Source: a virus. From it: a stretch of 64,000 bases of DNA. The notes under the pieces were generated by a model that was not told the DNA's origin, did not search any database, and saw nothing but the letters and a program-made list of their open reading frames with translations. The stretch is from positions 71,901-135,900 of IMG/VR virus record IMGVR_UViG_3300021963_000038. One strand, written 5' to 3'. The position numbers and the translations under genes are program-made. Of the stretch, positions 957 through 63,751 are shown in pieces (position 1 is the stretch's first letter; the number at the start of each line of letters is the position of its first letter).

Positions 957-1299
957 TATGAGTGATTACAATCCAGATAAGTGGTTGGTTGTTAAGATTA
1001 CTGGTCGTCCCAATGAAAAACCAGCATATAAAGTTTTTGCTTGTTGGTATGGAGGATACCTTGGTTCAGATTCTTGGAAACTGAATAGTGGTATCACCAA
1101 AGTAACTGAAACAACTGACTACTTCTTTTTTGATGGTCATAGTGGTTCAACTTATTCATGTCGCAAAGGTTCTTATGGTGCTAATGGATATGGTTATGGT
1201 GTTCTAGAAGATTTGATTCAAAAAGCAGAATCAAATGATATTACAATTGAAGTGTTACCCGAAGATACAAAATGGATGAAATTAAATTATGAAAACTAA
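949..1299 (+). CDS. hypothetical phage protein
   Basis: ORF overlapping upstream stop; WKLNSGI motif. Confidence 0.6.
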   Translation: MYDMSDYNPDKWLVVKITGRPNEKPAYKVFACWYGGYLGSDSWKLNSGITKVTETTDYFFFDGHSGSTYSCRKGSYGANGYGYGVLEDLIQKAESNDITIEVLPEDTKWMKLNYEN

Positions 1300-2938: not shown

Positions 2939-3388
2939 ATGTCAATTACAATTAGAAACCTTGAAAGTGCATTAGCTGGAGAAAGTAAGGCACATATCAA
3001 GTATCGTTATTTTGCGAAGATTGCTCGTGAAGAAGGTTATGAGGATGTTGCAAAACATTTTGAACACACAGCAGACCAAGAGATTCTCCATGCATGGGGT
3101 CATCTTGAGTTATTGATTGGTAAACCATCAACCAAAGAATGTTTGGAGTTGGCCATTGAAGGTGAAACATATGAATACACCACAATGTATCCCGAAATGA
3201 AAGAAGATGCAATTGCAGAAGGCAATAAACAAGCAGAACTTGAAGCTTCACATCAAATTACTGAATCAAGAAATCATGCAGAAGAATTTAAAGAAGTGTT
3301 GGTGAAGGCACAGAAACGATTTGCAGCATTAGAAAAGATTGAAAAACGTCATGCTGATGCTTATAAACGTGTACTTGAAAGTGTATAA
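2939..3388 (+). CDS. rubrerythrin (di-iron domain)
   Basis: AGESKA, QEILHA, EGETYE, ESRNH di-iron motifs. Confidence 0.9.
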   Translation: MSITIRNLESALAGESKAHIKYRYFAKIAREEGYEDVAKHFEHTADQEILHAWGHLELLIGKPSTKECLELAIEGETYEYTTMYPEMKEDAIAEGNKQAELEASHQITESRNHAEEFKEVLVKAQKRFAALEKIEKRHADAYKRVLESV

Positions 3389-3567
3389 TGGAAACGCATA
3401 AAAGGACAATAGTAAGAGCAATTAGTTGGCGAATTGTAGCAACACTAGTTACAGCAATTTGGACAGGATTAAGTGGTGCAATTGTGATTAATATCTTTAT
3501 GACAGTAGCACATTATATCCACGAAAGATTATGGTTAAAATTAGATTGGGAGAAAATTAATGAGTGA
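3388..3567 (+). CDS. DUF2061-like small membrane protein
   Basis: manual translation METHKRTIVRAISWRIVAT...HYIHERLW. Confidence 0.7.
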   Translation: METHKRTIVRAISWRIVATLVTAIWTGLSGAIVINIFMTVAHYIHERLWLKLDWEKINE

Positions 3568-3694
3568 ACAACATATATGTGTAGTTTGTGGCCATGTCCA
3601 CGATGATGAAACAGAAGGTAAATGGAACGAATTACCCGATGATTTCGTTTGCCCTGAGTGTGGTTGCGGCAAAGAAGATTATGAAGTTCTTTAA
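3560..3694 (+). CDS. rubredoxin
   Basis: manual translation: CVVCGH...LPDDFVCPECG (two CxxCG motifs). Confidence 0.9.
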   Translation: MSEQHICVVCGHVHDDETEGKWNELPDDFVCPECGCGKEDYEVL

Positions 3695-60437: not shown

Positions 60438-60824
60438 ATGGCACAATGGAAAGTTACTCCAACTTGGAAAAAATCTATCATTGAACGACAAACGTGGTCA
60501 AAACCTGGTGTTGCGGGTTATATTACAAATGCAACCGGTTGGCGATGGGGTGAATTTGTTGTAACCACAGAAGATGATGAACCGCCTGAGTTGGAATCTG
60601 GTGTAGATATCTATTCTTGTGGTTATGATTCTGAAATGATTGAATTGAATGATGCTTGTTGGGAAGAAACCGACATTGACCTTGCTGATGAAGCAGAAGT
60701 TGAAAAAATTCAAGAGTTTCTTGATGAGAATTCAATTCTCGACCTAGAAGAAGAAGGTTGGTCTATGGATGATTGTGAGATGATTATCGATTGTGATATG
60801 GAAATTGAAAGGATTGATGAATGA
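60438..60824 (+). CDS. acidic hypothetical protein
   Basis: GWRWGEF. Confidence 0.55.
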   Translation: MAQWKVTPTWKKSIIERQTWSKPGVAGYITNATGWRWGEFVVTTEDDEPPELESGVDIYSCGYDSEMIELNDACWEETDIDLADEAEVEKIQEFLDENSILDLEEEGWSMDDCEMIIDCDMEIERIDE

Positions 60825-61111
60825 AGTATATTGTTGAAACTTTAAACGCTTTTCGTCATGTACATATTATAGAAGCGGAGAATGAACAAGAAGCATTAAA
60901 CATTGCTTCTGTTGCTGATGATAATTGGCAGGAGTTTCTTGGTCAAATGAAAATTGATTGTCAAGAATATACCGAAGAACACATTAATATATTCCGTAAA
61001 AAAGAATATTTTTGGAATGGAGTTTGTACAAGAGATGAAGATGGTTATGTTGCTTATATTCACCCATCAGGTGAGAAAGTAGAAGCAAAACAAACTAGAA
61101 TTCCTGGATGA
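60821..61111 (+). CDS. hypothetical protein
   Basis: ORF. Confidence 0.55.
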   Translation: MKYIVETLNAFRHVHIIEAENEQEALNIASVADDNWQEFLGQMKIDCQEYTEEHINIFRKKEYFWNGVCTRDEDGYVAYIHPSGEKVEAKQTRIPG

Positions 61112-61129
61112 TTTTGGATATATAATAGG

Positions 61130-61210
61130 ATGACAACAAGAAAAATGCACTCCGCCTTTATTGAGTATTCACGCCCAACATTAGATTGGAATGGCGGTGT
61201 TCGTGTGTAG
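61130..61210 (+). CDS. putative attenuator leader peptide MTTRKMHSAFIEYSRPTLDWNGGVRV
   Basis: 26-codon ORF whose last codons form the 5' arm of an antiterminator. Confidence 0.6.
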   Translation: MTTRKMHSAFIEYSRPTLDWNGGVRV

Positions 61211-61237
61211 AATTTAGAAATTATTTTCCCACACACG

Positions 61238-61270
61238 AACCCTAGACCTAAAAAATCTAGGGTTTTTTGT
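61238..61270 (+). terminator. Rho-independent terminator (attenuator)
   Basis: aaccctaga-N9-tctagggtt followed by a T-run. Confidence 0.85.
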
Positions 61271-61275
61271 TTTTG

Positions 61276-61352
61276 GCCTCGGTGACGGAATTGGTATACG
61301 TGCTGGTCTTAGAAACCAGATTCTAGGAGTTCGAGTCTCCTCTGAGGCACCA
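61276..61352 (+). tRNA. tRNA-Leu(TAG), short variable loop
   Basis: cloverleaf, ctggt-ctTAGaa-accag, encoded CCA. Confidence 0.88.
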
Positions 61353-61354
61353 AT

Positions 61355-61431
61355 GCGGATGTGATGGAATTGGTATACATATCAGACTTAAAATCTGAGT
61401 TCTGAGGGTTCGAGTCCCTCCATCCGTACCA
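61355..61431 (+). tRNA. tRNA-Leu(TAA), short variable loop
   Basis: tcaga-ctTAAaa-tctga, encoded CCA. Confidence 0.88.
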
Positions 61432-61462
61432 AGATTGATGTTGTATTTTTACAACGGGCTGG

Positions 61463-61532
61463 TTGACAAATTAACTGGTTCATGTATAATACGTTTCATC
61501 GGTTGAGAAATCAATCGATACGCTCTTTAAAA
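61463..61532 (+). promoter_or_regulatory. rrn-like promoter with boxB hairpin and boxA
   Basis: TTGACA-N16-TATAAT; atcggttga-GAAA-tcaatcgat; GCTCTTTAAAA. Confidence 0.7.
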
Positions 61533-61547
61533 ATTTGATGAAGAAAT

Positions 61548-61623
61548 GCACCTATCGTCTAACGGTTAGGACGATGCCCTTTCAAGGCATAAACGGCGGG
61601 TTCGATTCCCCCTAGGTGTACCA
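61548..61623 (+). tRNA. tRNA-Glu(TTC)
   Basis: atgcc-ctTTCaa-ggcat, encoded CCA. Confidence 0.9.
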
Positions 61624-63081: not shown

Positions 63082-63157
63082 ATCTCGATGGTGTTTAACG
63101 GCAGCATGACGGTCTCCAAAACCGTGGGTGGGGGTTCGAATCCCTCTCGGGATGCCA
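63082..63157 (+). tRNA. tRNA-Trp(CCA)
   Basis: acggt-ctCCAaa-accgt, encoded CCA. Confidence 0.9.
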
Positions 63158-63181
63158 ATTTTAATTTTAAAAAGGAAGCAT

Positions 63182-63751
63182 ATGCCTAGTGTATTTTTGA
63201 CAAGCGACACACACTTTGGTCATCTAGGTGTGTGCCATTTCGTAGATGATGATGGTAAAAAAATAAGACCATGGAATACTCCAGAAGAAATGGATGAAGA
63301 AATGGTCAAGCGTTGGAACGAAACAGTAAAACCAACTGATAAAGTATATCATCTTGGTGATGTTGTGATTAACCGCAAAGCACTTAGCATTATGCATAGA
63401 CTGAACGGTGATAAAGTTTTGATTCGTGGTAACCATGATATATTCAAAGATGAAGATTATAGGGAACATTTTCGTGAGCTTCGTGCATATCACATTATGA
63501 ACGGAATGATTTTGTCCCATATTCCAATTCATACAGAAAGTCTTGGTAGATTTGGTGTTAACATTCACGGTCATACTCACCAAAGGCGAGTGATGACAGG
63601 AATTAAAAATTCACAAATTGATGTAAGATATCATTGTGTTTGTGTTGAACAAACAGATTTTAGACCAATTCTTTTTGAAGAAGTTATCAAACGAATTAAA
63701 GAAGAAGGTGGTGTGATTGGTTTCAAAAACGGAAATGGACCAATATCATAA
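63182..63751 (+). CDS. calcineurin-like phosphoesterase inside the tRNA array
   Basis: SDTHFGH, HLGD, GNHD, HGHTH. Confidence 0.85.
   Translation: MPSVFLTSDTHFGHLGVCHFVDDDGKKIRPWNTPEEMDEEMVKRWNETVKPTDKVYHLGDVVINRKALSIMHRLNGDKVLIRGNHDIFKDEDYREHFRELRAYHIMNGMILSHIPIHTESLGRFGVNIHGHTHQRRVMTGIKNSQIDVRYHCVCVEQTDFRPILFEEVIKRIKEEGGVIGFKNGNGPIS

Follow-up and report, generated by a model that had tools for sequence, protein, structure and literature searches.

A Mini-ORF, Hairpin, and Terminator Cassette before Phage tRNA Genes as a Candidate Ribosome-Dependent Attenuator

RESULTS

Layout of the element

A stretch of 64,000 nucleotides (nt) from the IMG/VR virus record IMGVR_UViG_3300021963_000038 (positions 71,901 to 135,900; hereafter, the window) contains a 164-nt element at positions 61112 to 61275 of the window, in which a leader open reading frame (ORF), a hairpin, and an intrinsic terminator directly precede two tRNA-Leu genes only. 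We give an even chance to the reading that this element is a divergent member of a conserved phage cassette working like a leader-peptide (ribosome-dependent) transcription attenuator before tRNA genes. The window represents the final 64 kb of a 135.9-kb contig with an estimated completeness of 82%, and the tRNA array called by ARAGORN is truncated by the contig end. The DNA runs containing the stretch carry the labels lake, freshwater, estuary, and marine metagenome. The features of the element and, after them, its neighbors are as follows (related loci are designated by L numbers).

61119 to 61126, plus strand: -10-like box, TATATAAT; a recognizable -35 box is absent in the window
61130 to 61210, plus strand: leader ORF of 26 codons plus TAG (MTTRKMHSAFIEYSRPTLDWNGGVRV), with an ATG start (ORF list)
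61152 to 61156, plus strand: CCGCC, predicted to pair with GGCGG (61193 to 61197) in minimum-energy folds; possible segment 1:2 pairing
61193 to 61208, plus strand: 5' arm of the upstream (antiterminator-like) hairpin, GGCGG-T-GTTCGTGTGT, consisting of the last codons and the first stop-codon base
61209 to 61230, plus strand: loop of the upstream hairpin, with 5 of the 13 differences between the window and L002
61231 to 61242, plus strand: 3' arm of the upstream hairpin, ACACACGAAC plus CC via a 1-nt bulge, overlapping the terminator 5' arm
61238 to 61264, plus strand: intrinsic terminator with a 9-bp stem, formed by AACCCTAGA (61238 to 61246), a 9-nt loop, and TCTAGGGTT (61256 to 61264)
61263 to 61275, plus strand: terminator T-run, TTTTTTGTTTTTG; T6 is invariant in alignment A4
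60821 to 61111, plus strand: gene for 96 amino acids (aa), function unassigned (ORF list), the final gene of the plus-strand operon leading into the element
61276 to 61431, plus strand: tRNA-Leu(tag) and tRNA-Leu(taa) (ARAGORN, Rfam tRNA matches), the sole genes between the terminator and the next promoter
61463 to 61490, plus strand: consensus sigma-70 promoter TTGACA-16-TATAAT (12/12 positions), serving the rest of the tRNA array independently

A preliminary description made from the sequence alone had pointed out the leader ORF, the complementary segments, and the terminator. The ORF (61130 to 61210) indeed has 26 codons and 18 different amino acids, with Cys and Gln alone absent, and 17 distinct residues occur in the 19 codons from the second Met; this second Met is absent from the closest relative, L002. 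As described, GTTCGTGTGT (61199 to 61208) is the exact reverse complement of ACACACGAAC (61231 to 61240), the terminator and its T-run end just before tRNA-Leu(tag), whose start at 61276 lies 11 nt past the terminator stem, and the second promoter placed near 61463 was recovered as TTGACA-16-TATAAT. The reported overlap between complement and terminator is present but covers 3 nt only (AAC, 61238 to 61240), and both hairpins form together in the minimum-energy fold. The window complement is longer distally (10 bp) and meets the terminator's CCC only via the 1-nt bulge.

Both hairpins are far more stable than dinucleotide shuffles. The upstream hairpin has a z score of -4.16 (0/200 shuffles equally stable or better), the terminator reaches -12.7 kcal/mol with a z score of -4.08 (1/200), and the whole element has a z score of -2.37. 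The terminator combines a GC-rich stem with a T-run after the last gene of the operon on the same strand, as is characteristic of rho-independent terminators. It was missed by a consensus terminator scan because its loop has 9 nt, while the scan allows loops of 3 to 8 nt.

A family of related cassettes in uncultured phages

Four pattern scans revealed a family of at least 21 distinct sequences from uncultured phage contigs, 17 of them in viral contigs and at least 4 in metagenome contigs. Chance matches were dropped by eye, namely, 14 of 31 stretches, 50 of 59, and 19 of 20 new loci in viral contigs; in the metagenome scan, 82 of 96 cores among the matches listed were set aside as chance. All 21 listed members share one order of parts, comprising TATATAA(T/A), ATG, an ORF of 22 to 26 codons, a stop codon in the hairpin 5' arm, a 3' arm running into the terminator 5' arm, and a T-run. 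The N-terminal search pattern left the hairpin unspecified, and hairpin and terminator were present in every family member recovered by it. Similarly, most of the hairpin was unconstrained in the metagenome pattern, and the members recovered with it had an unchanged hairpin. The TATATAA box is invariant in alignment A3, and GTTCGT is invariant across the family, though it was demanded by three of the four search patterns. The preliminary description had proposed to look for the overlap of ORF and antiterminator in homologues, and both layout and stop position are kept in all 17 viral members. L002 has the same 164-nt element as the window, while L010 has a 155-nt version with a different peptide and unchanged layout.

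Six relatives possess a full promoter, TTGACA-17-TATAAT. The ATG lies 6 nt past the -10 hexamer in 11 of the 17 viral members and 3 nt past it in the window; the 6-nt spacing puts the ATG at the expected +1 position and suggests a leaderless mRNA. On the other side of the cassette, the first tRNA called by ARAGORN starts 63 to 69 nt beyond the last sense codon in 16 of the 17 viral members, so that there is no room for a promoter between leader and tRNA. In L031 (about 1160 to 1240, minus strand) and L233, a tRNA-like stretch uncalled by ARAGORN stands past the T-run, directly after the terminator; it is near-identical to tRNA-His(gtg) of L018 and is probably a decayed or atypical tRNA-His.

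A family profile (nhmmer) found one copy per locus, with no second copy in the 135.9-kb contig and none in L012 to L015. In cultured phages, blastn with the window region gave tRNA matches only, tblastn with the 96-aa gene and blastn with the L036 element gave no match, and the SprT-like neighbor described below has distant relatives only. Rfam (60900 to 61600, E up to 1) matched tRNAs alone, leaving the leader without a family, T-box included, and PHROGs returned zero families for the 96-aa upstream gene or the 26-aa leader peptide.

The leader ORF is maintained by selection

The homologous frame is open in 17 of 17 viral members, with lengths of 66, 69, 72, 75, and 78 nt, all multiples of 3. 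The other two frames contain about 31 and 18 stops across the 17 members (a count that includes L010 read from the wrong ATG), and shuffled ORF interiors stay open in only 12 to 24% of trials. The 17 sequences are related and hence are not independent trials, and at least four in-frame indel events are required to explain the lengths. As judged from these sequences, the short leader ORF is kept by selection rather than by chance.

The encoded peptide itself is weakly conserved. Invariant residues are M1, W, and G-V-R, the latter two being present in all 15 aligned peptides and in 6 later members; identity between subfamilies is 25 to 38%, and the window and L002 differ at six codons, with five of these differences being nonsynonymous. 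Such weak conservation is expected of a leader whose reading, not product, matters, though it is no proof thereof. At the nucleotide level, the window and L002 agree at 151 of 164 leader positions (92%), while identity is 80% in the upstream gene and 86% and 75% in the two tRNA-Leu genes. The 13 differences fall in the ORF interior (8) and the hairpin loop (5), with none in the stems, the terminator, or the -10 box, a pattern indicating that the window element is under strong constraint.

The residue diversity emphasized in the preliminary description is genuine and family-wide; a role for it is not demonstrated. The 18 distinct residues in 26 codons compare with 13.1 ± 2.0 in random 26-residue windows of the phage's ORFs (P = 0.003) and with 13.6 ± 1.4 under independent draws (P = 0.003), and 25 leader codons cover 21 distinct codon half-boxes (P = 0.002), both kinds of test having been chosen post hoc, after the data had been seen. 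Family leaders use 14 to 18 distinct residues, at or above the background mean in 17 of 17, and the residue sets differ among members.

Four RNA runs were also consulted, and they mostly matched only tRNAs of other organisms. Run X15, a freshwater metatranscriptome, contained a 151-nt contig (depth 4) spanning 61149 to 61296, which includes the leader and both hairpins and carries five L002-type loop variants. It extends 21 nt into tRNA-Leu (fewer than the 31 set for bridging), DNA carry-over is possible, and the contig was not used as evidence. A promoter inside the leader (TTGGAA-16-TAGAAT, 9/12) was rejected because its transcript, being without the 5' arm, would always terminate.

RNA structure and modeled response to stalled ribosomes

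At two positions of the terminator stem, base changes are compensated on the opposite side, in 7 of 17 sequences at one position and in 6 at the other (13 both-side cells), and the terminator covariation score was reached by 0 of 500 shuffles. No variation is seen at the base of the upstream hairpin (GGGTTCGT with ACGAACCC), even where the metagenome pattern left it free, while the distal part of this hairpin differs between subfamilies yet stays paired. Of the proposed homologue comparison, terminator covariation and a residue diversity of 14 to 18 were found, but the upstream hairpin base showed no covariation. Folded in isolation, the upstream hairpin has the lower energy in all 15 members, at -15.1 to -22.0 kcal/mol versus -12.6 to -13.2 kcal/mol for the terminator. 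In the joint minimum-energy fold, 11 of these 15 form the full upstream hairpin and no proper terminator, because the two structures share AACCC; when the 5' side was blocked as by a ribosome at the stop, the terminator was restored in all 15. The trp/his-type attenuator geometry claimed earlier is thus supported at the family level (17/17 in layout, 11/15 with exclusive hairpins), but it is weak in the window copy, where the hairpins coexist.

The response to ribosome position was modeled at equilibrium by masking a 28-nt footprint for each A-site position and calculating the probability of the terminator's closing C-G pair. In free RNA, the terminator probability was at least 0.89 in 16 of 17 members. 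With the ribosome anywhere from the Trp codon through the stop it was 1.00 in 17 of 17, which agrees, within this model, with the earlier proposal that a ribosome at the stop masks the antiterminator arm, the stop codon lying inside the 5' arm in all 21 listed members. With the ribosome at mid-ORF codons, the probability fell below 0.3 in 15 of 17, and the responsive stretch in the relatives covers the middle third to half of the ORF. This modeled stall profile is of the shape expected of an attenuator. In the window, only codons 11 to 13 (ATT, GAG, and TAT, encoding Ile, Glu, and Tyr) lowered the probability, to 0.05 to 0.31, and this dip was stable within one codon across six footprint definitions.

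A protective 1:2 pairing is predicted in single-sequence folds, and its CCGCC and GGCGG segments are identical in L002. The claim of a conserved 1:2 helix was nevertheless dropped because RNAalifold found no consensus pairs, and a shuffle control, in which the CCGCC:GGCGG pairing was dispensable for terminator formation, agrees. Those features of the model that require pairing between the 5' half and the hairpin arm are therefore not robust.

Correspondence between leaders and tRNA arrays

Leaders matched their own tRNA arrays better than permuted arrays (P = 0.0002 to 0.004, kinship ignored). The permutation covered 16 of the 17 members (L028, for which a single tRNA was covered, was omitted), many arrays being partial and shared descent being ignored. 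Amino acids of the array within 700 nt were present in the own leader at 0.90 versus 0.78 under permutation (P = 0.0006), and leader residues were likewise better served by the own array than by permuted ones (P = 0.0002 to 0.0014). The match is driven by Ala (6/2/0/8) and Pro (8/2/0/6). Moreover, modeled sensor codons were cognate to the phage tRNAs covered in 49 of 93 cases versus 115 of 296 for other codons (Fisher P = 0.02, kinship ignored). Each of the 17 arrays includes a tRNA-Trp, and the leaders have an invariant Trp codon, but a modeled stall at Trp leads to termination, not read-through. For the window leader, 21 of 25 codons are readable by the tRNAs of the lineage versus a genome average of 79% (P = 0.44), i.e., no preference was detected.

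Neighboring genes and variants of the locus

The 96-aa gene has 15 relatives in viral contigs, 14 of which are followed by a tRNA array (ARAGORN), L016 being the one without. The spacer between this gene and the first tRNA varies. In L003 to L006, only 5 to 11 nt separate gene and tRNA, i.e., there is no spacer, while the spacers of L007/8 and L011 hold other hairpins. A long form stands behind the same gene in L012 to L015 (about 3290 to 3630), with TTGCCA-17-TATAAT, an ORF of 41 to 43 codons whose N-terminal part resembles the window leader (H-S..F..P-T..W), a strong 13-bp terminator, and a second strong promoter.

A gene of ~185 aa with an HEMxH motif, ending in ..LGWK, was found at L021 (3977 to 4546), L044 (7474 to 8028, minus strand), and about 40 more loci; we take the motif to be the signature of SprT-like metalloproteases. 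This gene lies directly upstream of tRNA arrays in this phage group, and the sequence after it is highly variable. In most relatives it is also the gene ahead of the cassette. Its downstream regions supplied an unbiased sample of 43 close loci with 27 distinct downstream regions. Within this group, the terminator of L161 directly precedes tRNA-Trp with the leader absent, and its 5' arm CCAACC (L161, 1989 to 2100) is complementary to GGTTGG in the last codons of the upstream gene, 9 nt before the stop; given this complementarity, the upstream gene itself might take the leader's role. Its junction AGAAC/CC has the appearance of a full cassette that lost the stretch between two GAAC repeats.

Several further observations concern the tRNA arrays. 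An 11-mer, TGGTGTAGTGG, which forms the Trp-Cys codons of leaders, recurs in the D-arm region of the tRNA-Trp 70 nt downstream (L021, 4602 to 4720, and other loci that begin with tRNA-Trp) and could be a trace of tRNA-derived origin or recombination. In addition, tRNA blocks are preceded by a module consisting of a GTGTTGT...ACAACA-type hairpin, TTGACA-16/17-TATAAT, a small hairpin, and then GCTCTTTAAAA or GTTCTTTAAAAA, a motif resembling rrn boxA. The module was located at 61436 to 61535 of the window and in L012 to L015, L122, L125, L258, and L284, 3' of their terminators. A gene for a 207-aa phosphoesterase (phrog_547, E = 2e-49) lies inside the tRNA array of the window at 63128 to 63751.

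DISCUSSION

A proposed mechanism and the weight of the evidence

The arrangement can be read as follows. Transcripts starting at the -10 box or arriving from the upstream operon would carry the ORF of 22 to 26 codons, whose last codons and stop codon would form the 5' arm of a stable hairpin. The 3' arm of this hairpin and the 5' arm of a terminator located 5 to 11 nt before the first tRNA gene would have bases in common, namely, AACCC in most relatives and AAC(CC) in the window. A ribosome at the last codons or the stop would melt the upstream hairpin, so that the terminator forms and transcription ends; a ribosome delayed earlier in the ORF would leave the upstream hairpin intact, and transcription would continue into the tRNA genes. 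In this scheme, both translation of the ORF and the dependence of read-through on where the ribosome stands are inferred.

Several observations count against this attenuator reading. In the window, the remaining 12 tRNA genes have the 12/12 consensus promoter located 190 nt downstream, the leader has no run of any single codon as found in trp or his leaders, a Shine-Dalgarno sequence is absent at the ORF, and the -10 box is just 3 nt from the ATG and is without a -35 box. As to structure, the upstream hairpin base is invariant and so provides no covariation, the score of the whole hairpin being reached by 22 of 500 shuffles; minimum-energy folds of the window, L002, L020, and L048 keep the terminator beside a trimmed upstream hairpin; RNAalifold gave zero consensus pairs for the ORF part of 15 members; and shuffling of the 5' half mostly leaves terminator formation in free RNA intact. 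In the stall model, the window terminator keeps a probability of at least 0.92 at 23 of 26 positions, and the dip needs TTAGATT to pair additionally with the terminator 3' arm, an interaction weakened in L002. Among related loci, the full cassette occurs in just 5 of the 27 distinct regions downstream of the SprT-like gene, the terminator stands without the ORF in L125/L126 (a lone terminator, then a strong promoter), L152, and L161, the full cassette of L258 and L284 is followed by a hairpin and a strong promoter instead of a tRNA, and L012 to L015 combine a strong terminator and their own promoter with almost no modeled switch. Since the terminator occurs alone in relatives, it can exist independently of the leader, and the cassette is made of separable modules.

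Part of this evidence would suit a plain operon terminator next to an unrelated small cassette, with unregulated leak-through or dedicated promoters supplying the tRNAs and the upstream hairpin contributing to mRNA stability at most. The persistence of the terminator where the ORF is missing, the strong promoters right behind it in L258/L284 and L012 to L015, the downstream consensus promoter of the window, and the coexistence of both hairpins in the window fold all point this way. We nonetheless regard this explanation as rather unlikely. It leaves unaccounted for the stop codon in the hairpin arm and the overlap of hairpin and terminator in all 21 listed members, the exclusion of the terminator by the upstream hairpin in 11 of 15, and the tRNA that follows the T-run without promoter room in 16 of 17 viral members; moreover, the leader is more conserved than its neighbors, with zero stem changes between the window and L002. 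The preliminary description had gone further than an attenuator and proposed a general sensor of tRNA depletion, in which a stall at almost any codon, 18 of the 20 amino acids being sampled, would turn the tRNA genes on. The high residue diversity (P of about 0.003), found at or above the background mean throughout the 17 viral members, and the breadth of codon half-boxes speak for such a sensor, but this proposal is not supported and appears improbable: only 3 of 26 stall positions respond in the window model and the relatives respond in the middle third to half of the ORF, the window hairpins coexist, the second Met is lost in L002, the members use differing sets of 14 to 18 residues, the codon match to phage tRNAs equals the genome average, and only two tRNA-Leu genes are gated directly.

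Two further explanations concern what the ORF or its RNA might do by itself. The ORF may encode a functional peptide, either a small effector or a nascent chain that arrests the ribosome at the stop, with Trp and G-V-R-[LV] selected as amino acids. The invariance of W and G-V-R, the position of the Trp codon outside the hairpin arm, and the conserved 24-residue N-terminal part in L012 to L015 are consistent with this. Against it stand the low identity between subfamilies, the predominance of residue-changing differences between the window and L002, and the exact coincidence of G-V-R with the hairpin arm; furthermore, many members are predicted to pair their Trp-Cys codons with Thr-Ser codons lying upstream, and constraints on the RNA could thus account for Trp-Cys as well. 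Resemblances to the known arrest peptides TnaC and SecM were given no weight. We see only a small chance for a functional peptide. That the element is a non-coding structured RNA, be it a small RNA, a processing signal of tRNA precursors, or a decayed tRNA remnant, with an incidental ORF, seems very unlikely: it is strongly structured (as its overall z score indicates) and in several loci shares the 11-mer with the tRNA-Trp downstream, but the frame is maintained in 17 of 17 with in-frame indels, Rfam gave no match at the leader, tRNA included, and ARAGORN calls nothing there.

Judging from the folding model, the window copy looks like a weak switch, and its element may be mainly a leaky terminator ahead of the two tRNA-Leu genes, since the terminator is predicted in almost every state.

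Comparison with known regulatory systems

Leader-peptide attenuators are well known from enterobacteria, where trpL, hisL, leuL, pheL, thrL, and ilvL precede amino-acid operons. The phage cassette resembles the trpL/hisL type in that a short ORF stands before an intrinsic terminator, an alternative hairpin shares bases of the terminator 5' arm, the ORF ends where a terminating ribosome would mask this hairpin, and no promoter lies between the terminator and the controlled genes. It differs from this type in that tRNA genes rather than biosynthetic genes would be controlled, and a run of one regulatory codon is missing. The phage leader also lacks a Shine-Dalgarno sequence, for which reason its mRNA is probably leaderless; a protective 1:2 pairing is not demonstrable, and the window hairpins are not mutually exclusive. 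T-box riboswitches are tRNA-sensing antiterminators of Gram-positive aminoacyl-tRNA synthetase genes, in which, as proposed here, tRNA status decides between antiterminator and terminator. Unlike the phage element, T-box leaders bind tRNA directly and have no ORF, and no T-box match was obtained at 60900 to 61600 (E up to 1).

The trn operon of Anabaena sp. PCC 7120 is a long tRNA array induced by translational stress (PMC8421152, PMC10272220). According to these two reports, expression of that supernumerary array rises under impaired translation, similar to what is proposed for the phage, but control in this cyanobacterium is exerted by the ribbon-helix-helix repressor TrcR on DNA instead of a switch between leader ORF and terminator. 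An ordinary rho-independent terminator would likewise have the GC-clamped hairpin and T-run that stand right behind the upstream operon's last gene, and in related loci this terminator occurs without a leader; unlike an ordinary terminator, that of the window abuts a tRNA gene and follows a conserved mini-ORF with a competing hairpin. Full-text literature searches returned no account of a leader-peptide attenuator before tRNA genes. The ribosome-dependent attenuator is a known device, and its placement before phage tRNA genes would be the new part, on which we are evenly divided.

Implications for phage biology

Phage tRNAs are now viewed as a counter to host defenses that cleave tRNAs and also as an adaptation of codon usage. 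Little has been established about the regulation of these tRNA genes by the phages themselves. Somewhat more speculatively, phages of this freshwater, uncultured lineage may gauge decoding speed on a leaderless mini-ORF and antiterminate their own tRNA genes when ribosomes stall, in a feedback loop of the trp-operon kind directed at tRNA genes, the mid-ORF codons co-evolving with the tRNA set, a possibility that we hold tentatively. The stalls could result from cleavage of host tRNAs by anticodon nucleases or from shortage late in infection. If true, a ribosome-sensing attenuator before tRNA genes would provide phages with a demand-driven tRNA supply and would bring a further class of genes under a classic type of regulation. 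At about 150 nt, the family's element is compact, and its natural variants range from clear switches to near-constitutive terminators, with the window copy among the latter.

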